From: Opitutaceae bacterium
GTDB taxonomy: Bacteria; Verrucomicrobiota; Verrucomicrobiia; Opitutales; Opitutaceae
Length of the DNA stretch: 64,000 nucleotides
Reading direction: 5' to 3'
Assembly: GCA_036502225.1 (NCBI GenBank)
Contig: DASXYY010000029.1
Location: 14,151-78,150, forward strand
In this document: positions 6,557 through 59,038 of the stretch, piece after piece
How the letters are laid out: the number at the start of each line of letters is the position of its first letter
Position numbering within the stretch: the stretch's first letter is position 1
The notes under the pieces: model-generated
The model's database searches: none
Seen by the model: only the letters and a program-made list of their open reading frames with translations
Told to the model about the DNA's origin: nothing
Program-made: the position numbers and the translations under genes

Positions 6557-6634
6557 GGTGGAGCGCATGGTCCCCATGCGCTTAAACCTCCGCCCGCATT
6601 TGGCGGCGAAGCGAGTGGGGGCTGCGCGCTTCAC
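6557..6634. repeat. type A REP doublet (long-spacer form), right arm degenerate
   Basis: GGTGGAGCGCATGGTCCCCATGCGCTTAAACCTCCGCCCGCATTTGGCGGCGAAGCGAGTGGGGGCTGCGCGCTTCAC. Confidence 0.8.
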
Positions 6635-6641
6635 TTTGCTT

Positions 6642-6712
6642 TAGCCGGGGGCGGTGACCCCGGCCGTTCCGCTTTTGACGTCGAACAGCGCGTGGGGACC
6701 ACGCGCTCCACC
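6642..6712. repeat. mixed REP doublet (type B-like unit + type A unit)
   Basis: TAGCCGGGGGCGGTGACCCCGGCC...TTTTGACGTCGAACAGCGCGTGGGGACCACGCGCTCCACC. It ends 2 nt before the GTG start of the DUF1573 gene. Confidence 0.8.
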
Positions 6713-6714
6713 TC

Positions 6715-7395: not shown

Positions 7396-7468
7396 GGTGG
7401 AGCGCGCGGTCCCTACGCGCTGCTCGATATCGAAAGCGGAAAAGCGCGTGGGGACCACGCGCTCCACC
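7396..7468. repeat. type A REP doublet (73-bp form)
   Basis: GGTGGAGCGCGCGGTCCCTACGCGC-TGCTCGATATCGAAAGCGGAAAA-GCGCGTGGGGACCACGCGCTCCACC. It fills the gap between two convergent stop codons exactly. Confidence 0.9.
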
Positions 7469-9904: not shown

Positions 9905-9987
9905 GGTGGAGGGGTATTGCACGGACTCTTGCGAATCGCCGCAAGCGCGGAGCCGGATTCCCAATTGAGTCCCAGCGGCCGCCGGGC

Positions 9988-10100
9988 TGTAGATCCGGGG
10001 GCTTATCCCGAGGTGGAGCGCGTTGTCCCTAACGCGCTGTTCGATGTCGAAAGCGGAAAAGCGCGTGGGGACCACGCGCTCCACCTCGCGATAGCGGGTC
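9988..10100. repeat. nested REP element: type B-like outer arms around a 73-bp type A doublet
   Basis: GTAGATCCGGGGGCTTATCCCGAG-GTGGAGCGCGTTGTCCCTAACGCGC-TGTTCGATGTCGAAAGCGGAAAA-GCGCGTGGGGACCACGCGCTCCAC-CTCGCGATAGCGGGTC. Lies between gmhB and the fpg-like gene. Confidence 0.85.
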
Positions 10101-10112
10101 AACGGCAGTTCG

Positions 10113-15785: not shown

Positions 15786-15858
15786 GGTGGAGCGCGTGGT
15801 CCCCACGCGCTTGTCCGCTTTCGACGTCAAACAGCGCGTGGGGACCACGCGCTCCACC
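15786..15858. repeat. type A REP doublet (73-bp form, spacer inverted relative to 7396)
   Basis: GGTGGAGCGCGTGGTCCCCACGCGC-TTGTCCGCTTTCGACGTCAAACA-GCGCGTGGGGACCACGCGCTCCACC. Starts immediately after the purH stop. Confidence 0.9.
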
Positions 15859-15910: not shown

Positions 15911-17290
15911 ATGTTCGATCCGGTCGAAAAGCTGAAGGAATTCATTCGCTTTCAGAGCGTATCCACCGACTCGCGGTTCAAGGAGGGGATGCAGGGCGCG
16001 CGGGAATTTGTTGCCGCCCTCCTGGCCGGCATGGGGTTCAAGGTCGAGGTGGTGCCGCTCAAGATTCATCCGCTGATCTTTGCCCAGCGCGGAGGCGATC
16101 CATCCTGGCCGCACGTGGTGATTTACGGCCACTACGATGTTCAACCGGCCGATCCCGTGGAGCTATGGAAGACGCCGCCGTTCGAGGCGACGCAGGTTGG
16201 AAACCGCGTGTACGGCCGCGGCGCGGCGGATAACAAGGGGCCGCTTCTGACCAACATCGCCGCCGTCGCGCGGCTGCTGGAAGAGAATCCCCAGGCGCCG
16301 ATCCGCATCACGTTTCTGATCGAGGGCGAGGAGGAAATGGGAAGTCCGAGTTTTCCGAGTTTTCTCACACAATACCAGGATCGTCTCAAGGAGGCGGATT
16401 TCGTCTATTTGTCGGATACCGCTCTGCCGCGGCCCGAGCAGGTCGTGGTCACCTGCGGACTGCGCGGGCTCGCGCTTTTCGACGTGATTGTAACCGGCGC
16501 CAAGATGGATCTGCACTCCGGGCTGCACGGAGGCGTGCTCCGCAGTCCCATTCAGGCGCTGGTGGAGATTCTCTCCACCCTCCACGATGAGAACGGCCGC
16601 ATCAACGTGCCCGGGTTTTACGACGACGTGCTCGACGTGCAGCCCTGGGAGCGCGAACAGCTCACGGCCCTGCGGGTGGACGAGAAGGCATACGCGGAAT
16701 TCCTGGGGATCGATACTTTTTACACGACGAAGGGATTTTCGCCGGCGGAAGCGATCCGCTTCATGCCCACGCTCGAATTCAACGGCATCGGCGGAGGATA
16801 TCAGGGCGAGGGAACGAAGACGGTCATTCCCAGCAGGGCGTTCGTGAAAATCAGCTGCCGGCTGGTGCCGAACCAGAGTCCGGACCGAATCAAGCAATTG
16901 GTCATCGCGGCAATTCGCGAACGCGCCCCCAAGGGCGTGAAGCTGGATTTTGTGGACCAGCACCAGGGCGAGCCTTACGTCGTGGTGCCTCCAGGCCGGC
17001 CCAACACGCCCAAGGATCAATCGCCGGTGCTGGCGCGCGCGTTTGCGGCGACGGAGCGGGCGGTGACGGACGTGTTTGGAAAACCGCCGGTCTATCTGCG
17101 CGAGGGCGGCAGCGTGCCGATCATCGCCGAGATCAAGAAGGTCACGGGCCTCGACTCGATCATGGTCGGGCTATTCCTGCCCGAGGACAATCTGCACGCG
17201 CCGAACGAAGGCTTCAGTCTCGACGTGATGAAGAAGGGCACCGAGGCGGCGTATCGGATGCTTAAGGACGTAGCCGGGGCGGGGGGGTAG
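15911..17290 (+). CDS. M20-family dipeptidase
   Basis: VVIYGHYDVQPADPVELWKTPPFE, GRGAADNKGP and EGEEEMGS are metal/catalytic motifs of M20 peptidases. Confidence 0.85.
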   Translation: MFDPVEKLKEFIRFQSVSTDSRFKEGMQGAREFVAALLAGMGFKVEVVPLKIHPLIFAQRGGDPSWPHVVIYGHYDVQPADPVELWKTPPFEATQVGNRVYGRGAADNKGPLLTNIAAVARLLEENPQAPIRITFLIEGEEEMGSPSFPSFLTQYQDRLKEADFVYLSDTALPRPEQVVVTCGLRGLALFDVIVTGAKMDLHSGLHGGVLRSPIQALVEILSTLHDENGRINVPGFYDDVLDVQPWEREQLTALRVDEKAYAEFLGIDTFYTTKGFSPAEAIRFMPTLEFNGIGGGYQGEGTKTVIPSRAFVKISCRLVPNQSPDRIKQLVIAAIRERAPKGVKLDFVDQHQGEPYVVVPPGRPNTPKDQSPVLARAFAATERAVTDVFGKPPVYLREGGSVPIIAEIKKVTGLDSIMVGLFLPEDNLHAPNEGFSLDVMKKGTEAAYRMLKDVAGAGG

Positions 17291-17311
17291 AAGACAACAA
17301 GACTTCAGGAG

Positions 17312-17390
17312 GGTGGAGCGCATGGTCCCCATGCGCTTAGGCCTCCATCCGCGTTTGACACCAAAGCGCGTGGGACAATGGACACACGCT
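17312..17390. repeat. type A REP doublet (long-spacer form), right arm decayed
   Basis: GGTGGAGCGCATGGTCCCCATGCGCTTAGGCCTCCATCCGCGTTTGACACCAAAGCGCGTGGGACAATGGACACACGCT. Confidence 0.75.
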
Positions 17391-17445
17391 GATCTGCTCG
17401 GCCTCGGGGTTCCGGAACCGCGATAACAGGCTTGCGACGTCGCTC

Positions 17446-17471
17446 AGCGCGTGGGGACCACGCGCTCCACC
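17446..17471. repeat. solo type A REP unit
   Basis: CAGCGCGTGGGGACCACGCGCTCCACC, 12 nt from the stop of the Pal-like gene. Confidence 0.8.
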
Positions 17472-20635: not shown

Positions 20636-20642
20636 GCGGAAA

Positions 20643-20721
20643 GGTGGAGCGCATGGTCCCCATGCGCTTCTCCGCCAAATGCGGGCCGACGTTTAAGCGC
20701 GTGGGGACCACGCGCTCCACC
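20643..20721. repeat. type A REP doublet (long-spacer form)
   Basis: GGTGGAGCGCATGGTCCCCATGCGC-TTCTCCGCCAAATGCGGGCCGACGTTTAA-GCGCGTGGGGACCACGCGCTCCACC. Occupies 79 of the 99 nt between mpa and dop. Confidence 0.9.
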
Positions 20722-22279: not shown

Positions 22280-24224
22280 ACTGACTTCGTCTCGGATTTC
22301 CCGCTGGCTGGCGCCGCTGTCGATCGTGGCGGCGGGAGCGATCGCCTATGGCGACAGTCTGCGGGACGCCTTCGTCTACGACGATCGCCTCAGCCTGGTG
22401 GACAACCCGGCGATTCGGCATTTGGGGTCCATTGGGCAGGTTCTCAGTCCGGCCCACGAGGCGGCGACCTTGCAGGGGCGGCCGTTCCTGAGTCTGACGT
22501 TTGCGATCAACTACGCGTTGGGCGGGCTTGATCCGCTGGGATACCATCTGGTCAACCTGGCGATTCATGTGCTGGCGGGCGTGTGCCTGTATTCGCTGGG
22601 GCGGCGCTTTACCGGGATGGGCGCGGCGTGGGCGGTCGCCCTGCTTTGGACGGTGCATCCGCTGCAAACGGAGTCGGTCACGTATATCGTTCAGCGGGCC
22701 GAGTCATTGATGGGCCTCTGTTATTTGGCGACGATCCTGTGCTATTGCCGGTTCGCGGAAACCGGACGGCGTCGCTGGGCGGCGGGCGCAGTGGCCTGTT
22801 GTCTGGCCGGCGTCGGCACCAAGGAGGTGATGGTTTCGGCGCCGGTGATGCTGTGGCTGTTTGATCGAGCGTTCCTGGCGGGAAGCTTTCGGGCGGCGTG
22901 GAAGGCGAGGAAAGGACTGCTGATTGCGCTGGCCGCGACCTGGCTGCCGCTGATCGCGCTGGTGGCCGCGACGGGCGGCAACCGCAGCGGCGCGGTGGGA
23001 TTTGGGCTCAACATCCGGCCGATCGATTATTGGCTCACCCAGGGCGAGGCGGTGCTCCATTACCTGCGACTGGCGGTCTGGCCGTCGCCTCTGGTGCTGG
23101 ACTATGGGAGGTTTGTTTACGCGAATCCGGCGACAGGGATAGTGCGGGTGGCGGCGGTGGCGGGGTTGATTGCGGCGACGATTTGGGCGTGGCGGAAGAA
23201 TGCGAAGGTCGGATTTCTGGGGTGGTTCTTTTTCGCGATTCTCGCGCCGACGAGCCTCTTGCCGGGGACCACGCAGATGATGGCGGAACACCGGATGTAT
23301 TTGGCGTTGGCGCCGGTGCTGGTGCTGCTCGTCGTAGGTGCGGCGTTCTGCCTGGCAAGGTGGAGCGCGTGGTCCCCACGCGCTTGCGGCGTCGAAAACA
23401 GAATAGCCGGGGTCAGCGCCCCCGGCTACAGATGGATAGACCCCCGGCTACAGCCAGGCGCCGTTCTATGCGTTGCGGGTGTATTCATGTGGCTCACCTG
23501 GCGGCGCAACGTCGACTACCGCTCGGACACTGCGATTTGGGCCGATACCGCCGCAAAGCGCCCCGGAAGCGCGATCGCGCATTACAACTTTGGCTACGCG
23601 CTGGGCCCATCGTCCAAGGCCGAGGAAGAGCTCCGCACGTCGATTCGGCTAAATCCCCGTTATATCCAGGCCTATGACGTGCTGGGCTATGATTTGTCGC
23701 TGGAGCCCTCCGCTCGGGCTGAGGCGATCGCGGTTTACCGCCAGGCGCTCGCCATCGATCCGAACGACCTTTCCGCCGAAAACAACCTGGGACAGTTGTA
23801 TTTGAAGTTACCAGCTAATTTCGATGTGGGCGTGGAGTTGCTGACCCGGGCCGCCGAGCAAACGCACGATCCGCAGAACCATTTCGCGCTGGGTGTCATT
23901 CTTTCGAGGCATCCCGGGCACGAGCGTGCGGCGCTGGGGCAATTTGAGGAAGCGGTGCGGCTCGATCCCCGCAACGCCCGGGCGCATTCGAATCTGGCGG
24001 CGAGCCTGGCGGCGGTGGGGGCACCGGATTCCGCCGTCGTTGCGGAATTGCGCGAAGCGGTCCGCCTCGACCCGAAGTTCGTGGAGGCGCGGTTCAATTT
24101 GGCGGTGATGCTGGCGCGGGATCCGGCGCGAAACGCGGAGGCGATCGCGGAGGCGACGGCGGTGCTGGCGATCAAACCGGATTTTGAGCCGGCGCGGGAG
24201 TTGCTGAGTCAGTTGGGACGTTAG
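22263..24224 (+). CDS. polytopic membrane protein with C-terminal TPR repeats (TMTC/PMT_2-like)
   Basis: N-terminus AYGDSLRDAFVYDDRLSLVDNPAIRHLGS followed by about 9 TM segments. C-terminal TPR units (AIAHYNFGYAL..., ARAHSNLAASLA...). TTG start at 22263 overlaps the dop end by 17 nt. Carries an in-frame repeat at 23359-23451. Confidence 0.7.
   Translation: MPDSSELTSSRISRWLAPLSIVAAGAIAYGDSLRDAFVYDDRLSLVDNPAIRHLGSIGQVLSPAHEAATLQGRPFLSLTFAINYALGGLDPLGYHLVNLAIHVLAGVCLYSLGRRFTGMGAAWAVALLWTVHPLQTESVTYIVQRAESLMGLCYLATILCYCRFAETGRRRWAAGAVACCLAGVGTKEVMVSAPVMLWLFDRAFLAGSFRAAWKARKGLLIALAATWLPLIALVAATGGNRSGAVGFGLNIRPIDYWLTQGEAVLHYLRLAVWPSPLVLDYGRFVYANPATGIVRVAAVAGLIAATIWAWRKNAKVGFLGWFFFAILAPTSLLPGTTQMMAEHRMYLALAPVLVLLVVGAAFCLARWSAWSPRACGVENRIAGVSAPGYRWIDPRLQPGAVLCVAGVFMWLTWRRNVDYRSDTAIWADTAAKRPGSAIAHYNFGYALGPSSKAEEELRTSIRLNPRYIQAYDVLGYDLSLEPSARAEAIAVYRQALAIDPNDLSAENNLGQLYLKLPANFDVGVELLTRAAEQTHDPQNHFALGVILSRHPGHERAALGQFEEAVRLDPRNARAHSNLAASLAAVGAPDSAVVAELREAVRLDPKFVEARFNLAVMLARDPARNAEAIAEATAVLAIKPDFEPARELLSQLGR
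23359..23451. repeat. mixed REP element (type A unit + type B unit + extra B tail) inside a CDS
   Basis: GGTGGAGCGCGTGGTCCCCACGCGCTTGCGGCGTCGAAAACAGAATAGCCGGGGTCAGCGCCCCCGGCTAC-AGATGGATAGACCCCCGGCTAC. 93 bp = 31 codons, read as WSAWSPRACGVENRIAGVSAPGYRWIDPRL. Confidence 0.85.
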
Positions 24225-24236: not shown

Positions 24237-24315
24237 GGTGGAGCGCGTGGTCCCCACGCGCTTTGACCTCGATCCGCGTTTGGCGCCGAAGCGCATGGGG
24301 ACCATGCGCTCCACC
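24237..24315. repeat. type A REP doublet (long-spacer form)
   Basis: GGTGGAGCGCGTGGTCCCCACGCGC-TTTGACCTCGATCCGCGTTTGGCGCCGAA-GCGCATGGGGACCATGCGCTCCACC. Lies between the TPR-membrane gene and the UBact-like gene. Confidence 0.9.
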
Positions 24316-28798: not shown

Positions 28799-28877
28799 GG
28801 TGGAGCGCATGGTCCCCATGCGCTTTGACGTTCGCCCGCGTTTGACGCCGAAGCGCGTGGGGACCACGCGCTCCACC
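28799..28877. repeat. type A REP doublet (long-spacer form)
   Basis: GGTGGAGCGCATGGTCCCCATGCGC-TTTGACGTTCGCCCGCGTTTGACGCCGAA-GCGCGTGGGGACCACGCGCTCCACC. Lies between the convergent anti-sigma and ruvA genes. Confidence 0.9.
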
Positions 28878-35238: not shown

Positions 35239-36497
35239 GGACGCCCGTGACGCCGGTCGTCACGTACCTCTTCACGACGTTTCCCAAGGACACGGAAACG
35301 TTCCTGCAGCGCGAAATCATCGCGATGCGCGCGGCCGGAGTGGAGGTCGAGCTTCACTCGCTGTGGGGTGGCAAGGACCGTTTTCGCGGCCAGCCGGTGC
35401 GGCGCTTTTCCAAGTGGAGGCTCCTGACGCTCTTTTGGAAAATCCCGATTGAAGCGCGTCGGCGCCCCGAGGTCCTGAAGGAATTGCTGGGCGGACTGGC
35501 GCGCCGTCGTCCGCCGTCCTGGATCAATTTATGGGAAAACCTGCTCGGAGCAGGGTTCGCCTGTGTTCAGGCCGCGGAATTTCGCGCGCGCCGTCCGCAG
35601 TGGATCCACGCAACCTGGGCGGGTGGTCCAGCCACCGCGGCCTGGCTCCTGGGGCGCATCGATGGCCACCGCTATAGCGCGGCGGCCCATGCCTATGACA
35701 TTTTTGAGCACGGCGGGGACTGGTGGCTGCGCGAGAAGCTGCTGCCGGCGGCGTTTGTGCACACCTCGACGGAAATGGGGCGCCGGACGCTGATCGAGCG
35801 CGGCGTTCCCTCGGAAAAAGTGGTCTGCATCCGCCGGGGGCTGGACCGGTTGGGGGCCGTCAAACGATTGCGGTCCACGCGGCTGCCCCTTCGTCTGCTG
35901 TGCATCGCGCGCCTCGTGGCCAAGAAGGGACTGGACCACCAGCTCCGAATCTACGCGGCCCTTCGGGATGCGGGCGTACCCTTCACCGCCAAGATTGTGG
36001 GGGAAGGGCCGCTCCGCGGAGACTTGGAACGTATGGCCGGACGTCTCGGCATCGCCGCGCGGGTCACGTTTACCGGCGCGCTTCCGCATCACGAAGTGCT
36101 GGGTGAATTGGCCGAGGCTGACGTCCTCTTGCATACCGGCGTGGTCGCCCCCAGCGGCGACCGCGACGGATTGCCCAACGTGATTCCCGAAGCGATGTCG
36201 GCCGGCGTCGTGGTGCTGACATCCCCCACGGCGGCGACGACCGAGGCCGTCACGGACGGCGTCAGCGGGCTGGTCTGTCCGGTGGAGGAACCCGCCGCTT
36301 GGGTGCGGGCGTTGGAGCGCATTGCCAAGGACGATGCGCTGGCCGAGGCGTTGCGCGCCGCCGCCCGGCGATGGGTGGAGGAAAACTTTGACGCGCACCG
36401 CAACGCCGCGAAGCTGCGGAGAGAGTTCGAGCAAGCGTGCGCCTTGACGTCGAAAGCGGAAAAGCGCGTGGGGACCACGCGCTCCACCTCGAAATAG
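35235..36497 (+). CDS. GT4-family (GT-B) glycosyltransferase, WcaL-like N-terminus
   Basis: VTYLFTTFPKDTETFLQREI N-terminus. C-half DRDGLPNVIPEAMSAGVVVL (EX7E-type). The last ~17 codons and the TAG stop lie in repeat 36444-36508. Start is TTG 35235 or GTG 35247. Confidence 0.75.
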   Translation: MRTPVTPVVTYLFTTFPKDTETFLQREIIAMRAAGVEVELHSLWGGKDRFRGQPVRRFSKWRLLTLFWKIPIEARRRPEVLKELLGGLARRRPPSWINLWENLLGAGFACVQAAEFRARRPQWIHATWAGGPATAAWLLGRIDGHRYSAAAHAYDIFEHGGDWWLREKLLPAAFVHTSTEMGRRTLIERGVPSEKVVCIRRGLDRLGAVKRLRSTRLPLRLLCIARLVAKKGLDHQLRIYAALRDAGVPFTAKIVGEGPLRGDLERMAGRLGIAARVTFTGALPHHEVLGELAEADVLLHTGVVAPSGDRDGLPNVIPEAMSAGVVVLTSPTAATTEAVTDGVSGLVCPVEEPAAWVRALERIAKDDALAEALRAAARRWVEENFDAHRNAAKLRREFEQACALTSKAEKRVGTTRSTSK

Positions 36498-36508
36498 CCC
36501 CCGGCTAC
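36444..36508. repeat. half REP element (core + type A unit + type B tail)
   Basis: TTGACGTCGAAAGCGGAAAAGCGCGTGGGGACCACGCGCTCCACCTCGAAATAGCCCCCGGCTAC. It contains the stop codon of the upstream GT4 and ends 3 nt before the next ATG. Confidence 0.85.
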
Positions 36509-36511
36509 AAC

Positions 36512-37573
36512 ATGATCTGGCTCGATGTGACCAAGACGGCCGATGCTCGGCACAAGTCGGGACTCACGCGGGTGACGACGAAGGTGCGCGCGGCGCTGGG
36601 CGAGGCGGCAAACGAACATCGGTGGCTCCCGCGGCAGGGTTGGAATGTGCCGGCTTCGCCCGACGATTGGTATCTGACGGCCGAGGTGTTTGCGCCGCAC
36701 GAACGACCCGGCTTCGGGGAATTTGTGCGGCAGCGTCCCGTGAAGCTGGCCGCGATCTTTCACGATGCGATTCCGCTGGAGTTGCCGCACATCACCTGGC
36801 CGAAATCGGTCGGACGCCATCCGCTGTATCTGTCCATGCTGGCGGAGTTCGATCGGGTGTTGGCGGTGTCGAATTACAGCCGTGAACGGCTGCTCGGGTT
36901 CTGGAAGTGGCAAGGGAGGGCGGTCCGGGCGCAGGTGGACGTGATTCCGTCGGGGGCGGATTTTTTGGTTCCTGTAGCCGGGGGCCTATCCCGAGGTGGA
37001 GCGCGTGGTCCCCACGCGCTCCACCTCGGGATAGCCCCCGGCTACAGCAAACGGCCGCTGGTGCTCTGTGTAGGGATACTTGAGCCCCGGAAGAACCAGA
37101 CTTTTCTACTGAAGGTGGCAGAAACGCTCTGGGCGGAGGGTCTCGACTTCGACCTCACCTTCGTCGGCCGCATCAATCCGCACTTTGGCCGGCCGATCGC
37201 TCGCGCCCTGCGCCAATCGCGCGCTCGCTACCTCGGCGCGGTGAGTGACGAGAAGCTCGTCCAGCTCTACCGCGAAGCCACCGTCTGCGCGTTGCCGACT
37301 CTCGCCGAAGGCAATGGATTGCCTCTCCTGGAAGCTTTGTGGTGCGGGACGCCCTGCATCGCTTCCGAGCTTCCTCCGCTCCAGGAAAATGGCGGAGAAG
37401 GCTGTCTGCTGGCACCGACCGGCGGTGAAACGGCCTGGGCCATTGCTTTGCGGGGTGTGATCGCGCGTCCCGATTTCGCGGCGCAATTTCGATCTCAGGC
37501 CGCCACGCGCCGCGCCACGCTCCCTCGCTGGGCGGACACCGCCCGCGCGCTTCAAAGCTTCTTGAGCGCGTAG
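36512..37573 (+). CDS. GT4-family (GT-B) glycosyltransferase carrying a 24-codon palindromic insert
   Basis: ATG at 36512 (MIWLDVTKTADARHKSGLTRV, similar to the N-terminus of the 38781-39965 GT4). C-half LCVGILEPRKN...AEGNGLPLLEALWCGTPCI. Insert at 36974-37045. Confidence 0.7.
   Translation: MIWLDVTKTADARHKSGLTRVTTKVRAALGEAANEHRWLPRQGWNVPASPDDWYLTAEVFAPHERPGFGEFVRQRPVKLAAIFHDAIPLELPHITWPKSVGRHPLYLSMLAEFDRVLAVSNYSRERLLGFWKWQGRAVRAQVDVIPSGADFLVPVAGGLSRGGARGPHALHLGIAPGYSKRPLVLCVGILEPRKNQTFLLKVAETLWAEGLDFDLTFVGRINPHFGRPIARALRQSRARYLGAVSDEKLVQLYREATVCALPTLAEGNGLPLLEALWCGTPCIASELPPLQENGGEGCLLAPTGGETAWAIALRGVIARPDFAAQFRSQAATRRATLPRWADTARALQSFLSA
36974..37045. repeat. nested 72-bp palindrome (type A hairpin inside type B arms) within a CDS
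   Basis: GTAGCCGGGGGCCTATCCCGAG-GTGGAGCGCGTGG-TCC-CCACGCGCTCCAC-CTCGGGATAGCCCCCGGCTAC. Only one unpaired base. Confidence 0.95.
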
Positions 37574-43007: not shown

Positions 43008-44625
43008 ACGTTTTTTCGCCCCGGCGGTGGTTTGCCTCGGATTGTGCGCCCTCGTTGCGTGGGCCTGCGCGCAATTTTACCTGCCGGGCAAGGGCTTCAC
43101 GTACCTGATCGAATTCGGGGAATTGCAGCACGAGCGTTTTCTGCCGGCGCTCAAGGCGGTCCATCCCTACGAGGTCAAGGACAAGATGGGCTACGACGCG
43201 CAGTACTACGCCCAAATGGCGATGGAGCCCAATCTGGGCAGCCCGGATTTGCGCCGCGCCGTCGACAGTCTGCCGTACCGAGCAAGGCGCATCCTGCTGT
43301 CGTGGATCGCCTATGCCTTGGGTGGCGGCGATCCGGTTCGAGCCCTGAACATCTTCGCCTTCGAGAATATCTTCAGTTGGTTTGCGTTGGCGGCGCTGTT
43401 CTGCCGCTGGGCGCCGCCCTGGAAATGGACCGGCCTGGCACGCTGGGTCGGGCTGTTGTTGGGCTTTGGCTTGTGCTGCAGCCTGCGGGGAGCGCTGGTG
43501 GATGGGCCGAGCCTGCTGATGATCGCCGGAGCGGTGGCTCTGGCGGAGGAGGAGTGGTGGTGGAGCGCGGCGGTGGTGCTGGGGCTGGCGGGATTGATGA
43601 GGGAGACGAACCTGCTGGCGGTGGTGATCTTGATTCCGAAGGGACAGTGGAAGCGGCGTCCCGCCGCTTTGGGGACAGAAGAAAAGCGGCGGGACGCCGC
43701 TTCCACCTTCGGCCAGATCGCCATGGCCGTTGCGCCGCTGATCATCTGGCTCCTCGTCCTCCGCCACTGGCTGGGCAGCGCCGAGGACTTGGGCGCACGC
43801 AACTTCGCGGCTCCGACGGCCGGCTATTTCGGAAAATGGAGCGAAATCATCGGACATCTGAGGACGCACCGGTTCGACTATGTCGGACGGGGAAACCTGC
43901 TGATGCTCGTCGGCCTGACGGCCCAGATGCTCGGGATCCTTTACGCGCCGAATGAACATCCGCAGTGGCGGAGCGTGGGCGCGGTTTTCGCTGGTTTGGG
44001 CCTCTGCCTGGGTCCGGCCGTTTGGGAAGGGTATCCGGGCGCGGCGGCGCGGGTGCTCCTTCCAATGACGGCGGCTTTTTTCGTGCTGGTGCCGCTCGAA
44101 CGCCGGCGGGCCTTGCCGTGGCTGCTCTACGCCCTGGGCGCGATGTCGGTGGTGGTCGCACCGGAAATCCTCAGTCCGCCGGGCCGCGAAAGTGTCGAGG
44201 TGCGGGGGCCGCGCGAGCTGCGCATCATGGACCGGACGGGGCAGATCGTGGACGCGGTATTCGGTCCGGAATGGTACGACCCGGAAAAGTCGTGGCTCGA
44301 ATATTGGCGATGGTGCAAATCTTCCGGAACCGTCACGTTCGTTAATCCGCATCCGTTTCCGGTGAAAGCCGACATCTCGTTCGGCCTGCGTGCCAGCGAT
44401 GCCCGGACCGTGGCGGTGCGGGCCGTCGACCGGACCTGGTGGTTCGGCCGATTGACGCCGTCGAGTATGCGGGACGTGAAACTGACGGACGTGACCCTGC
44501 CTCCGGGCGATACCACCTGGAAGTTCGAGTCGCTCGAGCCGCCCCTGCGCGCGAATGCTCCGGACGCGCGCGACTCGACGTTCAGCCTGCGGGATCTGCG
44601 GATCGATTTGCACGGGACGCCGTAG
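42979..44625 (+). CDS. polytopic membrane protein with C-terminal soluble domain (paralogue of 39943-41493), carrying a 20-codon palindromic insert
   Basis: ATG at 42979 (MVFLLAPDHKRFFAPAVVCLGL). GYDAQYYAQMAMEP...LPYRARRIL. C-terminus EWYDPEKSWLEYWRW...FSLRDLRIDL. Insert at 43647-43706. Confidence 0.6.
   Translation: MVFLLAPDHKRFFAPAVVCLGLCALVAWACAQFYLPGKGFTYLIEFGELQHERFLPALKAVHPYEVKDKMGYDAQYYAQMAMEPNLGSPDLRRAVDSLPYRARRILLSWIAYALGGGDPVRALNIFAFENIFSWFALAALFCRWAPPWKWTGLARWVGLLLGFGLCCSLRGALVDGPSLLMIAGAVALAEEEWWWSAAVVLGLAGLMRETNLLAVVILIPKGQWKRRPAALGTEEKRRDAASTFGQIAMAVAPLIIWLLVLRHWLGSAEDLGARNFAAPTAGYFGKWSEIIGHLRTHRFDYVGRGNLLMLVGLTAQMLGILYAPNEHPQWRSVGAVFAGLGLCLGPAVWEGYPGAAARVLLPMTAAFFVLVPLERRRALPWLLYALGAMSVVVAPEILSPPGRESVEVRGPRELRIMDRTGQIVDAVFGPEWYDPEKSWLEYWRWCKSSGTVTFVNPHPFPVKADISFGLRASDARTVAVRAVDRTWWFGRLTPSSMRDVKLTDVTLPPGDTTWKFESLEPPLRANAPDARDSTFSLRDLRIDLHGTP
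43647..43706. repeat. type C REP doublet (60 bp) within a CDS
   Basis: GTGGAAGCGGCGTCCCGCCGCTTT-GGGGACAGAAGA-AAAGCGGCGGGACGCCGCTTCCAC. Perfect 24-nt inverted arms. Confidence 0.9.
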
Positions 44626-44638: not shown

Positions 44639-44725
44639 GGGTGGAGCGCGTGGTCCCCACGCGCTTAAACCTCCGCCCGCGTTTTGTATCAATCGCCGAA
44701 GCGCGTTGGGACCACGCGCACCACC
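44639..44725. repeat. type A REP doublet (long-spacer form)
   Basis: GGTGGAGCGCGTGGTCCCCACGCGC-TTAAACCTCCGCCCGCGTTTTGTATCAATCGCCGAA-GCGCGTTGGGACCACGCGCACCACC. Lies between convergent stops at 44625 and 44727. Confidence 0.9.
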
Positions 44726-46376: not shown

Positions 46377-47362
46377 GGGGCGGATGCGGCAGCGTGTTCC
46401 AACGAGCGCCAGCGTGCAAATTCGATTGCGAGGGCCGCGCGCGCCCCCTCGGCGGCGCGGGCGGGCGGGCGGCGGCGCAGGCCGTAGCGACACAGGGCGG
46501 CCTGACCGGCCAGCCGGCGGTCGGGGTAGTCGCGGGGTTCAGGCAGGTAGCGCTCGAAGTAGGCTTGGGTCCAGGCCATTTCCGCCAATCGGGACAGCCG
46601 TTCGGCCCAGCTCCGGGCCAGGCGGTGCGCGTTGGCTTCATTCCGCGCGTTGCGATTGGGGCTGGCGCTGACGTGGTGATCGACGGCGCTGCGCAGGGCG
46701 ACGGCGTTGGTGCGGCCCAGTTCAGCGGCCCGGAAACAAAGGTCCACGTCTTCGCAGCCATTGAAATAACCTTCGTCGAACCCCCCGAGCGTGCGCCACA
46801 ATTCGGCCGAGATCAGCAGGCACGCGCCGGTGACCGCCGGAACCAAGGAGAAACCGCGCAGGCGTTCGGTGACGGGCGCCCGTTTCCGATGCTCCGGCTT
46901 GGCTTTGGCGTTGATTACGATGCCGGTGTGGTCGATCGCGCCGTCGCTGACGCGGTATTGCACGTTGCCGATGGCGCCGGCTTGGCCGCGCCGGGCGAGC
47001 CCGCCGTGCAGGGCAAGCATGGGTTCAAGCCAGCCGGGGCGAAGGACCAGGTCGTTGTTGAGGAGGACGAACAGATCGCCTTTGGCTGAAGCGGCGGCCC
47101 GGTTGTTGGATTTGGCGTAGCCCGAGTTTTGCGAGTTAAGCAGAACTTGCAGCCGGGAGCCTATCCCGAGGTGGAGCGCGTGGTCCCCACGCGCTCCACC
47201 CTTCAGCCATTCCCTGGTTCCGTCGGTGCTCCCATCGTCGACCAGGATGATCTCATGCGCCAAACCCGCGGGCATCGTCGCCTGCAGACTGGCCAGCATT
47301 GCCTGCGAGTACGGCAGGCAGTTGTAAAGCGGAACAATGAAACTGACCGCCGGGGCGCCCAA
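46367..47362 (-). CDS. GT2-family glycosyltransferase carrying an in-frame repeat insert
   Basis: VSFIVPLYNCLPY, ILVDDGSTDGT, VLLNNDLVL (DXD-type). TTG start directly after the rmlA stop. Insert at 47149-47210 is read as [19 protein letters not shown]. Confidence 0.75.
   Translation of the reverse strand: MGAPAVSFIVPLYNCLPYSQAMLASLQATMPAGLAHEIILVDDGSTDGTREWLKGGARGDHALHLGIGSRLQVLLNSQNSGYAKSNNRAAASAKGDLFVLLNNDLVLRPGWLEPMLALHGGLARRGQAGAIGNVQYRVSDGAIDHTGIVINAKAKPEHRKRAPVTERLRGFSLVPAVTGACLLISAELWRTLGGFDEGYFNGCEDVDLCFRAAELGRTNAVALRSAVDHHVSASPNRNARNEANAHRLARSWAERLSRLAEMAWTQAYFERYLPEPRDYPDRRLAGQAALCRYGLRRRPPARAAEGARAALAIEFARWRSLEHAAASAPCP
47149..47210. repeat. partial nested REP element (B-like arm + minimal type A hairpin) within a CDS
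   Basis: GCAGCCGGGAGCCTATCCCGAG-GTGGAGCGCGTGGTCCCCACGCGCTCCAC-CCTTCAGCC. The right outer arm is decayed. Confidence 0.8.
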
Positions 47363-52649: not shown

Positions 52650-54785
52650 TCAAACCGCCGCTAAAGGCAGCGCGAAAAATGCCGCCGCGCCAAGAAGTAA
52701 TGCGAGGTCGATTTTGGACAGATGATCCCACGAAAAACCGGACGCACCGATCATGCCCGCCCAATGGGCCGCCAGGGTTTCGAGCAAGACAATTGCAAGC
52801 GCCAGGCGGGACGCCGGCCGGCTGAGAGGCCAGCGCGTCGCGGTCCACAGCACGATGCCGATCGTAATCGGTTCCAGACAGTTTCGGCCGAGGCCGTCGG
52901 TGCTGTAGCCCCAAAAAACCACGGCAAGCGCAAGCCCGGCGAGGATGAACCACCGGCCGAATTCCCGACCGTTTCGATCCGGGGAGTGGGAACGCTTGAA
53001 CGCAGCCAGGAGCGGGATCCACGCGCCGGCAAAGCCCAGCTGGGAGGGAAGCGTCTTCGAATATTGCATCGACCAGATGAGCCAATCGTTCAGTTGACGG
53101 GTGCGCCAGACATGGGCCGCCTTATCCGCCAGCCAGGCTCCCGGCACGACCGTGTCGAGCAGGCTTTTACCGCGGGAAAGCGCCCAGCTTCCCGCCGAAA
53201 CCGCCGGTAGCGCGCCGCGCCCATCGCCGATGAAGTAGGAGAGGAATGGGTCGGGTTCGTGCGCGTGGTGCTTTAACCACAGCCAAGGAAGGCAGGCCGC
53301 GGCTGCCGTTGCCGCGGAGCGCAGGGTCCATCCCAGACCATTGAGGCGCAGAAAAAAGACCAGCAGCGGCACCGCGAACAATGCGCCGAGCGGATGGGCG
53401 TAGTAGGCCGCGGCGAGCCACAGGCCCGTCCAAATAAAGTGGAAGCGGCGGCCCGACTCGGGAATCGCAGCGGCCGCTGCCAGCAACAGGAATGAGGTCG
53501 CCAGCAGCTTCGGCCATACGAACGTCGTATTGATCCACGTCACCGGCGCGAACGTCAGCCAGACCAGCGCCCATCGCGCTTTCTTCGGTTCCACGCCCAG
53601 ACTGAGGAGCAGCTCCGCGGCGGCCAAAATGAGGCCCGCATTGGTGAAGATGCCGATGAACCGGGCGATAAAGAAACTTTCTTCGGCCGCGGGCCAGGGA
53701 CCCAGGGAGGCATCGCCGCCCGATTGGACCTGAGGCGGGGCGAGACCGAATTCCCCCAGAATGGCCAGCGGAATCAAAGGTCCTCGCGAAGTGGCCGACC
53801 ACCCGTGCCAGAAGAAACGTTCCGAGACCGCGGGCGTCCGCACCGGCAGCGTCAAATACGCCGCCGTTTTGTAGGGAATGGCGCTGTCCGGCGGCGAAGC
53901 CGCGAGCCGGGCTTGGAGCGGCGACTGCCTCCAGAAATCCTCGCCCAAAGGCGTGCGCACGGCCGAATCGAGGATCGCGGCGCCCGCGAGCGCGATGAAG
54001 CACAACCAGGCCGTTCGCTCCACTTCACCATTGCAAGCAAGCGGCGAGACGCCGCTTCCACGGAACACCACCGATATCACCAATAGACTCTCGATCACGA
54101 CCAGCCCCTTCCCAGCCAGCGAACCGTGGGCGGGCCCCCATAGGCAAGCCACGACTCCCGCCGCCATCATCAGTCCAAGTCCCGGCAAGGGAACGTAGGC
54201 GGCTTTCCGAATCCCGAATGCCCAGCCGGGAACGAGCAACAGCGCGGCGACGGAAAAAGCGCAGGCGAAATAATAGACGTAATCGGTTTGCAGATACGCC
54301 GGAACCGGATGCGGCGGCAACGCATCCACCGATCTCGACGACCGGATGGGAGAACCGCACCACACCGAGCCCGGCGACGCCTGGATCTGCGCGCGGAGGC
54401 CCCGCCAGCCGCGGACGTCGATCTTCCAAAAGTTGAGCCCCGGGTAGGCGTCGGGGCGGCGGCGCAGGGTCGCGACCGGGAATCCGGAAGTGTCGATCAC
54501 GTCAAGTTTGAGTTCCGCGTCCTGGCCTTGGAAGGGGACGTAAAGAAACGAACCGGTCAGCGCGAACCGGCGGGACTCCCGCTGCGGCCGCTGAATGGCA
54601 TAGGTGACGTCCCCGAGCGGAACGCCGTCGAAATCCTTCCCGGAAAGCACGTCCGCCCGCCATTCCGAATCCGCTCCCGAATTCGGCCGAAACCACCAGG
54701 GCAGGTTCAGGATCAGCAGGACGACCATCGCCGCGATCCGCGAATTGGATTGAAAACCGGCGCCTCGACTCACTGTGATGCGCAA
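52650..54785 (-). CDS. large polytopic membrane protein (up to 711 aa) with N-terminal extracytoplasmic domain
   Basis: About 14 hydrophobic segments after a ~170-aa soluble region. Start uncertain: TTG 54785, GTG 54773 or ATG 54728. Confidence 0.55.
54039..54061. repeat. solo type C REP unit within a CDS
   Basis: Minus-strand GTGGAAGCGGCGTCTCGCCGCTT differs at one loop base from the arms at 43647-43706. Confidence 0.7.
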
Positions 54786-54788
54786 CTC

Positions 54789-55550: not shown

Positions 55551-57522
55551 TTGTTCGGGGCAGGTCTTCGGAACTGCTCCAAGCTTCCGCCATCAGTGCG
55601 ACCAAGAAGATGAGTCCGGCGGCCAGCGTAATCGTGCCCGCCCAGCGCGTGGCCCTCCACGCGGCGTGGGACCACCGGCCCATTTCGACAGGGTCGGCGA
55701 ACGCGAACCACGCGTTGGGACGATCGACGCGGGCTTCGACGACAAAGGGCCCGGAGGGCGCGCGGACGAACGCGTTGTGCCAGCCCTCTCCCGGGACGTG
55801 ATCGGGTTTGACCGTGGCCAGGACCCGGCCGGTCGTCGGATCACTCAGTGTCAGGGAAAGTCCGGTGCGGCCCAGATCGCCGGCCACGAGAAATTGGAGC
55901 CAGCCGCGAACGGGGGACGATACGGGCTGACTGCGCCAGACCGCCGGTTCGGCGCCGTAGGAACCATGGAAGCGGGCTTCGTCCAAGGGCGCGGTGTTCG
56001 GAGAAAGTCCGTCATTCTCCTTGGGATACGGAGGCTGGTTCTGAGGACCGCGGGTATCGGCATCGGCGAAGCCGGTGGTCGCGGCGGTGGTCAGAGCAAG
56101 CGGCAGCCGCACCGAGGCCGGCAGCAGGCGGCGGATGGGCGGCATCCGCAGGACCTCGGCCAGCGAGGCCGCGTCCGGGTAGGGGATCTCGGGATGCCGC
56201 AAAAAGGCCTCATCGCCGGAGGCGAGAAAAAACCGGGTGTTGGATTCAGCGTAGCCGTAGAATCGCGGAAGATCCTTCAGTTGCCCGGGCACCACGTCAC
56301 GCAACTGGTAGCAGAGGCCGATCACGAGAAGCAACGTCCAGGCCCCGGCCAGAAGCAGCCACAGCCGTCGCTTTCCGACTGTGCCGTGGTCGCCGGCAGG
56401 ATCGCTGTAGCCGGGGGCGTTGACACCGGCACCTGCGGTGTCGAAAGCGGGACTGCCGGGGTCACCGCCCCCGGCTACAGAATGCAGCCCGCCGTCGACG
56501 AGGACCGCCAGGCAGAGCGCATTGGTGATGAGGCCCAGGAAGAAGGTGTCGATGTAGCGGGGCGCTGGCGGCGGCGCGCTCCCGCCTCGCGCATAAGCCA
56601 TCGCGGCAACCTGCATCAGAACCCACAAGCCAAGCACAAATAGCAGCAGGTTGAATTGCGTCGCGGGACGCCGGCGGAGAATCCGAACCGCAACCACGGC
56701 CCACGGGACCCAAAACAGCAGCGCGGTGTAACCCCATCCGGCTTCGAAAACGGGCCAGCCCAACCCCCGCATCGCCGCCCACCAGAAGGTGGCGAACGAA
56801 TGAGCCTGCAGGAAATAGTGTCCCGCGACGACGACCCGGATATGCACACCGAGGGCGAATAGGGCGGCGCACAACAGGACCGTCACTGCGGCGACCCACG
56901 AAATCGAGCGTTCGCGCCAGGCTTGAACGAGGACGACGGCGGCGCACGCGAACGCCGCCATGGGGCCGCTGCCCATCGCAACGAGCGACAGGGCCGCCGC
57001 CGCCAATCCCAGCCACCATGTTGCCTGTTTGGGCCGGCGGAAGGGAAGCCAGCACAGCGCCCCGAGCGCGAATAGGATCAGGTACCATTGCTGCGAATGA
57101 AACCCGTGGATGGCGTTTTCCCATGAGAATAATCCGGAGAATGCCATCGCTAGCAGGAGGCCGTTGACCGCAGTGCTTCGGCGCGAAAGATTCCGGCTGG
57201 CCAGGAGCAGAAAACAGACCGCGATCGCCGCGGGAATGCATGCGTTGACGACGGCCTCCAGCCGTTGATCCCACTGGCGATTCGCGATGGTCAGCCCGAG
57301 CGCGACCAATCGGGTCGGAACAATGCGGTGCTCGTTGTGCGCGTGAAAGAGATTGGAAAGGCTGTGATCGCCGGAGTACCACGGCTCCAGGATTTGCCGG
57401 GCTTCCGCATCCCATTGATCGAGCTCCGGGAGCGACCTGCCGAACCGATCGACAAGCGCCCAACGGAACCCCATGACGAAGAGAAACAAGGCCACGGCGG
57501 CCAACGTCAGAGAACGCCTCAT
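55495..57522 (-). CDS. polytopic membrane protein, candidate GT-C glycosyltransferase (paralogue of 57519-58913), with a 24-codon palindromic insert
   Basis: ATG at 57522. TM1 then the acidic loop PELDQWDAE. About 11 TM segments, then a ~200-aa C-terminal soluble domain. Insert at 56407-56478. Confidence 0.6.
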   Translation of the reverse strand: MRRSLTLAAVALFLFVMGFRWALVDRFGRSLPELDQWDAEARQILEPWYSGDHSLSNLFHAHNEHRIVPTRLVALGLTIANRQWDQRLEAVVNACIPAAIAVCFLLLASRNLSRRSTAVNGLLLAMAFSGLFSWENAIHGFHSQQWYLILFALGALCWLPFRRPKQATWWLGLAAAALSLVAMGSGPMAAFACAAVVLVQAWRERSISWVAAVTVLLCAALFALGVHIRVVVAGHYFLQAHSFATFWWAAMRGLGWPVFEAGWGYTALLFWVPWAVVAVRILRRRPATQFNLLLFVLGLWVLMQVAAMAYARGGSAPPPAPRYIDTFFLGLITNALCLAVLVDGGLHSVAGGGDPGSPAFDTAGAGVNAPGYSDPAGDHGTVGKRRLWLLLAGAWTLLLVIGLCYQLRDVVPGQLKDLPRFYGYAESNTRFFLASGDEAFLRHPEIPYPDAASLAEVLRMPPIRRLLPASVRLPLALTTAATTGFADADTRGPQNQPPYPKENDGLSPNTAPLDEARFHGSYGAEPAVWRSQPVSSPVRGWLQFLVAGDLGRTGLSLTLSDPTTGRVLATVKPDHVPGEGWHNAFVRAPSGPFVVEARVDRPNAWFAFADPVEMGRWSHAAWRATRWAGTITLAAGLIFLVALMAEAWSSSEDLPRTITSVANCNTGISRAPRSK
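56407..56478. repeat. type B REP doublet (72 bp) within a CDS
   Basis: GTAGCCGGGGGCGTTGACACCGGC-ACCTGCGGTGTCGAAAGCGGGACT-GCCGGGGTCACCGCCCCCGGCTAC. Confidence 0.9.
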
Positions 57523-58913
57523 AGGAGTAGGAGGACCACGAAGCTCACGCCTGCCAAGGTCGCCAAGACGAACCCCGCGGAGTCAAGAAACCTGGCCATT
57601 CGCGAACCGAAGGGCTCGCGAGCCGGCGGGGTGTGGATGCTCGGAGGATAGAGCGGCCGAAGTTCGGTCAGATTCAAGCGGAGCTGGGAACCATCGACAG
57701 TGGGATAGGGCAGAGCGTCCTCCTTCAACTGGCTCCGGTCGCCCGTGGCGAGGTAGGCGCGCACGTCCGTCCCCATTTCCGAATGGATTCGTCCGGTCTT
57801 TTCCATGGCCGCCCAGGTCCCAGGCCAAGTGGAAATCAGGCCCACTACGACAATCGTCGTCCATAGCCCCGCCGCGCCGCGTATCGTCGGCCGCTGTTCG
57901 GCCGATGTCCGATCGGCCTTCAGCAGCACCCGCAGGCTCAGCGCGTTCGCCAGCAATCCGACGAGGACATTGTCCAAATAGCGGGTCGGCGGGGGCAGCC
58001 CGCCCCAGCCGCGGGCGTAAGCCGCTGCCAGCGATTGCGCGAGCGACCACGCTCCGAGGAGCACAATGAATGTCACCTCGCGCGAGTTGATCTCGTCCCG
58101 ACGCCGAAGAGTGCGGAGTGTCAGCCAGATCCAAGGAAGATAGAGGAGCAGAGCTCCGTAACCGAACGGCGCGGAGAACGCGGGCCAGCCGACGGACTGG
58201 AGCAGCGTTTGGAAAAACTCCGCAACCGATCGGGCCTTGAGCGCCTGAGTGGCCGGCATGGACGTTTGAATCGCCAACGCCACACCGATGATGGCCAGAT
58301 AGATCAATAGGCTTGGCCAAAGGCGCCGCCGTCGCACGACCAGCCAGCCGGCGGCGAATACCGCCGCAAAGAATCCGCTCGCCATGGAACCCAGCGCCAG
58401 ACCCGCCGCCACCCATCCGGGCCAGGAATCCGGCCACGCGAACGTGACCAACGCCAAGCCGACCAGGAAAAGCTGCTGCGAATGGAATCCGCGCAGCACA
58501 TTGTCGGTCGCCCAGGGCACGGCGTAGGCGGCCGCAAGGGCGAGAAACCAGAGACATTGGCCGGTTCGGGACAATCCCGAGGCGAAGCCAAGGAAAAATC
58601 CCGCTGCCAGAACGGCGGCCAGGCCCGCATTGACGGCCGTTTCCAGCCGCTGGTCCCACCAGCCGTTGGCCGTCGTCTCCACGTAGGCCAGCACCCGGGT
58701 GAGCAGGACGTGATGGTCAACGTGCATTTCCAAAAAATTCGAGAGATGCAGGTTATGGTGGGCCCGCGCGACAAACAGATTGAACCCTTCGGCATCCCAC
58801 TCGTCCTCCTCGGGAATGTCGGTGCCGAACCGTCCCTCCACGCCCCACCGGCATCCAAGCACGAGCACCACCAAGCAGGCCGTCAGGGCGATGATGCGGG
58901 TACGCGAGGACAA
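57519..58913 (-). CDS. polytopic membrane protein, candidate GT-C glycosyltransferase (paralogue of 55495-57522)
   Basis: Acidic loop PEEDEWDAE after TM1. Aligns with its paralogue from (L)SSRTRIIALTACLVV. Start inferred as TTG 58913 (alternative TTG 58949). The track ORF to 59339 runs through a repeat. Confidence 0.55.
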   Translation of the reverse strand: MSSRTRIIALTACLVVLVLGCRWGVEGRFGTDIPEEDEWDAEGFNLFVARAHHNLHLSNFLEMHVDHHVLLTRVLAYVETTANGWWDQRLETAVNAGLAAVLAAGFFLGFASGLSRTGQCLWFLALAAAYAVPWATDNVLRGFHSQQLFLVGLALVTFAWPDSWPGWVAAGLALGSMASGFFAAVFAAGWLVVRRRRLWPSLLIYLAIIGVALAIQTSMPATQALKARSVAEFFQTLLQSVGWPAFSAPFGYGALLLYLPWIWLTLRTLRRRDEINSREVTFIVLLGAWSLAQSLAAAYARGWGGLPPPTRYLDNVLVGLLANALSLRVLLKADRTSAEQRPTIRGAAGLWTTIVVVGLISTWPGTWAAMEKTGRIHSEMGTDVRAYLATGDRSQLKEDALPYPTVDGSQLRLNLTELRPLYPPSIHTPPAREPFGSRMARFLDSAGFVLATLAGVSFVVLLLL

Positions 58914-58959
58914 GCGGATGAGCGTGTAAGACGCGTGGGCAATTTGCAACGGCGGGTGA

Positions 58960-59038
58960 GGTGGAGCGCATGGTCCCCATGCGCTTCGGCGCCAAACGCG
59001 GATGGACGTTAAAGCGCAGAGGGACCATGCGCTCCACC
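58960..59038. repeat. type A REP doublet (long-spacer form)
   Basis: GGTGGAGCGCATGGTCCCCATGCGC-TTCGGCGCCAAACGCGGATGGACGTTAAA-GCGCAGAGGGACCATGCGCTCCACC. Confidence 0.9.

Follow-up and report, generated by a model that had tools for sequence, protein, structure and literature searches.

The 64,000-nucleotide stretch analysed here (contig DASXYY010000029.1 of an Opitutaceae bacterium, positions 14,151 to 78,150; hereafter the window) carries a dense set of short palindromes of the repetitive extragenic palindromic (REP) kind. We consider it probable that they form a non-autonomous population of REPs and of their inverted doublets (REP doublets forming hairpins, REPINs), mobilised by a REP-associated tyrosine transposase (RAYT) in the genome of a member of the Opitutaceae (Verrucomicrobiota). 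A fuzzy scan of the window found 37 units, grouped into 19 loci between 5870 and 62379 (Table 1; window positions equal record positions on the 98,411-bp JGI metagenome contig Ga0376652_0000361 minus 14,136). All three unit types reported in a first-pass annotation of this DNA recur far above chance: the type A core AGCGCRTGGNNNCCAYGCGCT has 24 matches at no more than two mismatches against 0.04 expected, and types B and C have 7 and 3 matches, respectively, with none expected. The 21 loci of that annotation become 19 on grouping, since it had counted sub-clusters apart. Its density of about one locus per 3 kb holds, its coordinates were recovered to within 1 bp (44640 instead of 44639, and 6641 instead of 6642), and the nested forms it placed at 9988, 36974 and 47149 are real. 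It had also assigned the host to the Planctomycetes-Verrucomicrobia-Chlamydiae group, rightly so: the M16 peptidase encoded in the window is 100% identical to 'MAG TPA: pitrilysin family protein [Opitutaceae bacterium]', a protein from a metagenome-assembled genome (MAG), and its other named matches are from Opitutus and Opitutaceae, which places the host in the Verrucomicrobiota, family Opitutaceae.

The units have the anatomy of REPs, with a GT[AG]G head followed by a GC-rich stem of 7-9 bp, as had been described from the letters. Type A consists of a GTGG head and the stem AGCGCGTGG/CCACGCGCT, type B of a GTAG head and the stem CCGGGG/CCCCGG, and type C of a GTGG head and the stem AAGCGGCG/CGCCGCTT. 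All three are GC-rich imperfect palindromes of 20-40 bp with a 5' GT[AG]G, by which the GTAG superfamily of REPs is recognised. Seven A units carry a stem variant, CATGG...CCATG, in which G:C is changed to A:T on both stem halves. Within the window, units are combined into A-A, A-B, B-A, B-B and C-C doublets, nested forms and small alternating clusters. When the doublets are aligned by the orientation of the spacer (alignment A2), A-A, A-B, B-A and B-B are all built around one spacer, TTCGAYGTCGAAAGCGGAAA, and the central core that the first-pass annotation had seen in A and B doublets, GTCGAAAGCGG, is present in all four. The unit types are, therefore, interchangeable around one spacer. The A-A doublets form two sub-families, one of 73-74 bp with this type 1 spacer, common to the mixed A/B doublets, and another of 79-86 bp with a conserved type 2 spacer of its own (alignment A3).

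Homodoublets and nested forms fold as a single long hairpin (-33 to -48 kcal/mol as DNA, z -7 to -15), and for the homodoublets no shuffled sequence was as stable. Accordingly, the inverted A-A, B-B and C-C doublets and the nested forms are properly called REPINs, whereas the mixed doublets fold into two hairpins. The clusters, with alternating orientation and mixed unit classes, also deserve the comparison with bacterial interspersed mosaic elements (BIMEs) that had been made. At the gathering score, the only Rfam match was tRNA-Lys at 18840-18911, with none for REP elements. Inverted ends and a length of 60-90 bp would also suit MITEs, the miniature transposable elements with inverted repeats, derived from an insertion sequence, its DDE transposase using the GGTGGAGCGC or GTAGCCGGGGGC ends as terminal inverted repeats. 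We find this origin hardly credible. Inspection by eye found no direct-repeat target duplications flanking the printed doublets, each end is a complete hairpin with a GT[AG]G head, one unit stands alone at 54039, and B units flank genes for Y1 RayT proteins, not DDE genes. A MITE origin was rejected on the lack of target-site duplications and because the ends are autonomous hairpin units.

In the mechanism that we propose for the RAYT-mobilised population, the units would fold as hairpins in single-stranded DNA, and a RAYT, a Y1 HUH enzyme encoded elsewhere in the genome, would recognise these hairpins and would cut and rejoin them without target-site duplication, the doublet being the presumed moving unit. 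Selection would keep copies that lie immediately after stop codons in gaps between convergent or same-direction genes, and none in divergent, promoter-bearing gaps. Copies inside genes would be kept only if they are a multiple of 3 bp long, free of stops in the frame used and located in a tolerant loop.

Comparison with two syntenic relatives, L106 (M16 76% identical, 10.8 kb) and L107 (M16 66% identical, 12.8 kb), provides evidence on the history of the insertions. No intact A, B or C unit occurs in either contig, and the points at which the DNA alignments are interrupted coincide exactly with the REP intervals. In L106, 12 bp stand in place of window 6502-7474; in L107, 5 bp stand in place of 15782-15901 and 4 bp in place of 9906-10127; and the interval of the cluster at 6557-6712 is missing from both. 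Decayed A relics remain in L107, GGAGCGCCGGGGACAACGCGCTCCACC in the M16 loop and ACGCGCTCCACC past the M20 stop, which shows that some insertions are old and decaying in the sister lineage. Unlike the relic-only L107, the window lineage has many near-identical copies, which would be mobile now or would have been so recently. Rather than being conserved at orthologous positions only, an outcome considered in the first-pass annotation, the elements are missing or reduced to relics at the orthologous sites of both relatives.

The same comparison concerns the DUF1573 gene (6769-7395), which has the four-unit REP cluster on one side and an A-A doublet on the other. In L106, 12 bp replace this entire 973-bp block, and the M16 and NAD kinase genes are adjacent in L107 too. 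Judging from this arrangement, the block may be a REP-flanked gene insertion.

A link to RAYT genes was found for type B. The search started from Oter_2468, a RAYT of Opitutus terrae (Additional file 5 of PMC3733652), and led through 25 relatives to 80 metagenome RAYT loci, none from the source samples and none with an A or C unit. RAYTs of the Oter_2468 type always have GTAG REPs on their flanks, though with a different sequence (GTAGGG... type). A second RAYT clade goes with type-B units. In L090, an open reading frame (ORF) at 239-700 reaches 114.8 bits with the NF047646 model ('REP-associated tyrosine transposase', cut-off 80) and is flanked by GTAGCCGGGGGCGGTGACCCCGGC upstream and GCCGGGGTCAACGCCCCCGGCTAC downstream, each identical to window units; these B units lie at 161-184 (+) and 748-771 (-), with their heads pointing outward around the RAYT. 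In L077, L072, L073 and L067 the RAYT lies between B-like units whose stems are compensated, and L110, a contig of a Chthoniobacterales MAG, has B-like doublets on both sides. The clade has 2,423 members at E<=1e-10, the named ones being from Ca. Udaeobacter, Chthoniobacterales or Verrucomicrobia, and some of its called RayT proteins begin with a B-type read-through peptide, e.g. VAGGADPG...APPGY. The layout of a REPtron, in which units flank the RAYT with heads outward, was thus seen with type B alone, and there in organisms other than the present one. No A or C unit occurs in the small sample of RAYT loci L018-L110, and no A-type read-through peptide in 145 RAYT proteins; at the single RAYT loci P0129, P0124, P0136 and P0239 the flanks are other GTAG REPs or B-like units, never type A. 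Type B is a RAYT-associated REP. Co-mobilisation of type A by the B-type enzyme is a reasonable guess from the sequences, because the spacer scaffold is shared and nested A hairpins are bounded by GTAGCCGGGGGC arms. The genome of the window presumably encodes a RAYT, and this enzyme or another would move types A and C.

Where the elements lie relative to genes was determined from public gene calls, with two starts corrected (Fpg and UBact). Eleven of the 19 loci are intergenic or at a gene edge. REPs occupy all four convergent gaps, 7 of the 15 same-direction gaps and none of the seven divergent ones, and the intergenic copies start 0-42 bp from a stop codon. This is the placement expected of REPs, i.e. 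mostly extragenic, behind ORFs, in convergent or same-direction gaps. None of the REP hairpins has a T-tail, terminator-like sites show no excess (21 in 20 kb, with 19.2 expected), and no A-A doublet is among the called terminators; intrinsic terminators were, therefore, rejected as an explanation.

It could be argued from the proximity to stop codons and the filling of every convergent gap that the hairpins mainly serve the host at 3' ends, whether as mRNA stabilisers, as terminators lacking a U-tract or as sites for gyrase or nucleoid proteins as proposed for E. coli BIMEs, and that selection keeps them there, mobility being historical or irrelevant. The great stability of the hairpins, and the stem kept by the two-sided G:C to A:T change in seven A units, would agree with such a role. 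We regard it as unlikely to be the main explanation, given that 8 of the 19 loci sit inside coding sequence, that the asymmetric spacers are found pointing either way with respect to transcription (alignments A2 and A3), that T-tails and an excess of terminator-like sites are both lacking, and that the orthologous gaps in the two relatives measure only 4-12 bp and hold no element. Nevertheless, a secondary host role alongside RAYT-driven mobility is possible, and the hairpins might affect mRNA 3' ends.

The loci inside genes deserve particular attention. The elements had been taken as simply extragenic; this does not hold, since eight of the 19 loci (~40%), overlooked at first, lie in frame within genes, namely those for the M16 peptidase, PMT_2/TPR, GT1, GT2 and 3xGT2 proteins and three membrane proteins without a Pfam match. 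Four of these genes have domain or homologue support for in-frame residence. First, the element in the M16 peptidase has Pfam M16/M16_C domains to either side, and homologues (76% identity) align across it, being ~15 aa shorter exactly there. Second, the alignment of the GT2 protein to PDB 8uhv crosses the element at 47149. Third, the alignment of the GT1 protein to MshA (3c4q) crosses its element, whose 24 encoded residues align with the inter-domain linker of MshA with almost no net gain in length. Fourth, in most of the 150 listed homologues of the 675-aa protein, the best-scoring stretch stops at ~aa 342, immediately ahead of the element, and 9 of 11 aligned homologues show a gap across the 24 REP-encoded residues. 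At all eight loci, one frame is kept from one side to the other, with a third-codon-position GC of 0.71-0.87; for the 548-aa, 711-aa, PMT_2/TPR and 3xGT2 genes, coding reality is argued from this codon composition and from continuity.

It is conceivable that such copies are gene-calling artefacts, in that stop-free palindromes fuse neighbouring genes or extend their starts while the elements are really extragenic. This does happen in the window, where the public calls of Fpg and UBact run through A doublets. As a general explanation we hold it to be very improbable: the M16 domains flank their element and homologues align across it, the GT2 domain and the GT1 alignment span theirs, homologues of the 675-aa protein match both halves, and the codon composition keeps one frame across all eight. 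Concerning the two miscalled genes, the public Fpg call (9077-10102 (-), 341 aa) has its canonical MPELAEV start at 9904 (~275 aa), and in the public UBact call (24238-24570 (+), 110 aa) the Pfam UBact domain covers aa 70-110, the likely start being the ATG at 24397 (57 aa). The RAYT proteins P0123, P0168, P0172, P0173 and P0177, from public metagenomes, have N- or C-terminal extensions that are translated REPs (VGPAL..., VAGGADPG...APPGY, AGVSAPGYN), a gene-calling artefact of the same kind.

Length and frame separate the two settings. The intragenic elements with clear ends measure 60 bp (C-C), 72 and 72 bp (the two B-B doublets), 72 bp (nested) and 93 bp, all multiples of 3; of the eight A-A doublets, measuring 73, 74, 79 or 86 bp, not one has a length divisible by 3 and not one lies inside a gene. 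B-B doublets have one stop-free frame per strand, read VAGG...APGY, the other frames holding TAG or TGA, and the nested 72-bp form is read in the same frame. Intragenic B-headed copies all read VAGG... because the other two frames carry stops; the frame bias is thus forced, and it was rejected as independent evidence of selection on the peptide. The encoded peptides, of 20-31 aa, are rich in Gly, Pro and Ala and are located in variable loops or between hydrophobic segments. Random insertion followed by purifying selection would yield just such a pattern of stop-free multiples of 3. The two B-B doublets and the nested A-in-B form differ in internal design but share the termini GTAGCCGGGGGC...GCCCCCGGCTAC and are all exactly 72 bp (24 codons). 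One might go further and regard the B-headed elements as a REPIN lineage that selection has moulded so that it resides harmlessly within genes, with A-A doublets kept at gene ends, the coding and 3'-untranslated niches being divided and units swapped around the common spacer. We offer this as a tentative and rather doubtful extension.

Several points weigh against a RAYT-mobilised population. First, no RAYT gene lies in the window, as originally stated (hidden Markov model search of all six frames, nothing below E=1), and the same search found no Y1 or RAYT gene in record 4407-87151 (83 kb) of the source contig. Moreover, 0 of the ~90 RAYT loci fetched carry an A or C unit, A being the commonest type. 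The earlier proposal of a RAYT-driven system thus stands in part: type B is linked to RayT in contigs of other Verrucomicrobia, but no RAYT was found for A or C. Second, the presence/absence data rest on species at 66-76% protein identity, and loss in L106 and L107, instead of gain in the window lineage, is formally conceivable. Strain-level insertion polymorphism was not seen, the four metagenome samples and three Logan runs representing one strain (three JGI samples besides the source and the Logan runs, at 99.97-100% identity). Third, the net gain is below the size of the element in M16 (+15 aa), GT2 (~+9) and GT1 (~0), for 17-25 encoded residues. Simple insertion is, therefore, not the whole story at these three sites, where, as far as the alignments go, the elements seem to have taken the place of some of the original loop sequence instead of purely adding to it.

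The first of these points, together with decayed units at 6609, 10012, 17367 and 59012 and the relic-only state of L107, would also suit a relic population, spread by a RAYT since lost from the lineage, as in many E. coli strains, and now only decaying. The state of the copies argues otherwise. Thus, 15 of ~25 A units are within one mismatch of the consensus, six more are the exact compensated variant, and the B-B doublet at 62308 consists of two perfect units. In addition, the 83 kb searched represent only a minor part of a genome, and a RAYT usually occurs in a single copy. A relic population is, in our judgement, quite unlikely, and a RAYT encoded elsewhere in the genome remains the explanation that we prefer.

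Such systems are known from the same family. In Opitutus terrae PB90-1, Di Nocera, De Gregorio and Rocco (2013; BMC Genomics 14:522, PMC3733652) described the REP families GTAG-17 to GTAG-20, one of them with a mostly GTGG head, with homo-, hetero- and hybrid dimers placed preferentially behind ORFs; Oter_2468 is among the RAYTs aligned there, and the 70 intragenic REP rows for O. terrae are the highest intragenic GTAG REP count given. The system is thus not new for the clade, the GTAG REPs, the GTGG variant and the RAYT all having been described in O. terrae. The likeness extends, on that description, to short GT[AG]G hairpins with a GTGG variant, to several REP families per genome, to head-to-head and tail-to-tail dimers, and to placement behind ORFs together with intragenic copies. 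Indeed, O. terrae GTAG-17 dimers listed there read VAGVADPG...PGY or VAGGGDP, sharing head and frame with the type-B VAGGGDPG...APGY of the window. The unit sequences appear to differ, and the window doublets have conserved spacers of 21-27 nt, unlike the 1-2 bp reported for GTAG-17 and GTAG-19 dimers. Swapping of A and B units around one spacer departs from O. terrae as described, and nested 72-bp forms are not mentioned in the text consulted.

The same source offers two further comparisons. In the SMAG repeats of Stenotrophomonas maltophilia, as reported there, ~10% of dimers join different GTAG families (PMC3733652); sequences and phylum are different, and the window hybrids, unlike those, share one spacer scaffold with both kinds of homodimer. 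The palindromic elements of Rickettsia (RPEs) likewise lie in frame in genes and are translated as extra loop segments (PMC3733652). Unlike the window units, R. conorii RPE-4 and RPE-6 are counted there as CGTC-type REPs, repeats without a transposase link; RPE-1 is longer, and the Rickettsia host is an obligate intracellular alphaproteobacterium.

The REPIN/RAYT system was defined in Pseudomonas fluorescens by Bertels and Rainey (2011; PMC3116915). Its REPINs, like the doublets here, consist of two inverted REPs with a short spacer, form one long hairpin and occur in many near-identical copies, and its usually single-copy RAYT is flanked by the same units, the layout seen for type B in L090 and L110. 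Unlike that system, the present one belongs to another phylum with other RAYT clades, comprises three unit types with hybrid doublets, has a large intragenic fraction, and the RAYT of the window genome was not seen.

The definition of BIMEs rests on the Y, Z1 and Z2 units of enterobacteria together with named linkers, some of which include a site for the protein IHF. The resemblance to those of E. coli lies in the alternating mosaics of REP classes with few conserved linkers (e.g. window 6557-6712 and L013 6176-6293). By inspection, the printed units and spacers of the window are types A, B and C, not enterobacterial REPs, and the mosaic architecture alone is in common. What sets the window apart is that A and B units replace one another around a single spacer, that nested forms of 72 bp occur, and that the rule of multiples of 3 holds cleanly.

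The accepted picture of REP/RAYT systems is unchanged by these data. They add a second, uncultured Opitutaceae lineage beside O. terrae, the sole species with intragenic GTAG REPs catalogued, connect one of the unit types with a RayT clade that is very large in soil Verrucomicrobia (Udaeobacter, Chthoniobacterales), and illustrate cleanly how a selfish element is filtered by length and frame. On the practical side, REPs break metagenome assemblies, mislead gene callers (Fpg and UBact being over-extended in public calls) and add segments of 20-31 residues to real enzymes, so that masking or flagging them in Verrucomicrobia MAGs is deserved.

Table 1. REP loci of the window, with gene context, encoded segment where the locus lies in a gene, and predicted fold where available.
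Position	Element	Gene context	Encoded segment	Fold (kcal/mol; z)
5870..5942	Mixed doublet, B forward + A reverse	Within M16 peptidase gene 3899-6514 (+)	VAGGGDPGKSAIKRGKARGDHALH, aa 658-682	
6557..6712	Four-unit cluster: A forward, decayed A reverse, B forward, A reverse	42 bp past M16 stop, upstream of DUF1573 gene		
7396..7468	A-A doublet, 73 bp, spacer type 1	Whole convergent gap, DUF1573 stop (7395) to NAD kinase stop (7468)		
9988..10107	A-A doublet 10012-10085 between degenerate B-like arms	Between HAD gene stop (10113) and true Fpg start (9904)		
15786..15858	A-A doublet, 73 bp	Begins at base after purH stop, upstream of M20 peptidase gene		-40.3; -10.4
17270..17471	Cluster: B-like head, A + decayed A, further reverse A	M20/OmpA convergent gap		
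20643..20721	A-A doublet, 79 bp, spacer type 2	7 bp past proteasome ATPase gene stop		
23359..23451	A forward, B reverse, extra B head, 93 bp	Within PMT_2/TPR gene 22263-24224 (+)	WSAWSPRACGVENRIAGVSAPGYRWIDPRL, loop between hydrophobic segments	
24237..24315	A-A doublet, 79 bp, spacer type 2	12 bp past PMT_2/TPR stop, upstream of true UBact start (24397)		-34.8; -8.1
28799..28877	A-A doublet, 79 bp, spacer type 2	Convergent gap; 13 bp from one stop, 2 bp from ruvA stop		
36447..36509	Half doublet: type-1 spacer, A reverse, B-like arm	Last 16 codons and TAG stop of GT1 glycosyltransferase gene 35247-36497		
36974..37045	Nested 72-bp near-perfect palindrome, B-like arms around single A hairpin	Within GT1 gene 36512-37573 (+)	VAGGLSRGGARGPHALHLGIAPGY	-47.7; -15.2
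43647..43706	C-C doublet, 60 bp	Within 548-aa membrane protein gene 42979-44625 (+)	WKRRPAALGTEEKRRDAAS, between hydrophobic segments	-35.1; -10.6
44640..44725	A-A doublet, 86 bp, type-2 spacer + 7-bp insert	Convergent gap; 14 bp and 1 bp from two stops		
47149..47200	Partial nested form, left B-like arm + A hairpin	Within GT2 gene 46367-47362 (-)	17 residues inside GT2 domain	
54039..54061 (-)	Single C unit	Within 711-aa gene 52650-54785 (-)		
56407..56478	B-B doublet, 72 bp	Within 675-aa membrane protein gene 55495-57522 (-)	VAGGGDPGSPAFDTAGAGVNAPGY	-32.8; -7.1
58960..59038	A-A doublet, 79 bp, spacer type 2	2 bp past stop of 3xGT2 gene		
62308..62379	B-B doublet, 72 bp	Within 1324-aa 3xGT2 gene 59041-63015 (-)	VAGGVDPGNPAFDVKGAGVNAPGY, just ahead of first GT2 domain	

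Two gene clusters hold many of these loci. Window 18986-27371 is a bacterial proteasome operon (AAA ATPase, Pup-ligase-like protein, PMT_2/TPR, UBact, two proteasome subunits and a second Pup-ligase-like protein), with two A-A doublets between genes and one A-B element inside the PMT_2/TPR gene. Window 35247-64000 is a long glycosyltransferase/sugar-nucleotide cluster, comprising GT1, GT2, PMT_2, epimerases and large membrane proteins without a Pfam match, and it contains six of the eight intragenic REP loci. The region 1-4000, with a TPR protein, small hypothetical genes and Fur, has a G+C of 0.595 against 0.62-0.68 elsewhere and zero REP units.

Same-strain contigs from other samples (L003, L004, L005, L008, L011 and L014) end within or beside REP copies, at window 15834-15857, 17337/17500, 37016, 47183, 47230 and 5936, as expected for a high-copy repeat; the repeats thus fragment the assemblies. 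Beyond the window, the contig flanks hold further units of all three types (L013 2637-2659, 6176-6293 and 7025-7149; L016 588-659, 5193-5252 and 5794-5865), including a B-A-B triple cluster, an intergenic 72-bp B-B doublet and, close to the 5' end of a called HAD-like gene, a C-C doublet. Finally, a scan of genome contigs for the A-unit pattern gave at least one locus, L012 from a Chthoniobacter sp. MAG (DASYAY010000036.1), in which a CATGG-variant A-type unit, ACTGGAGCGCATGGTCCCCATGCGCTT, lies at the contig end (7105-7131). Type A is, therefore, not confined to the Opitutaceae, as this contig belongs to another verrucomicrobial order.

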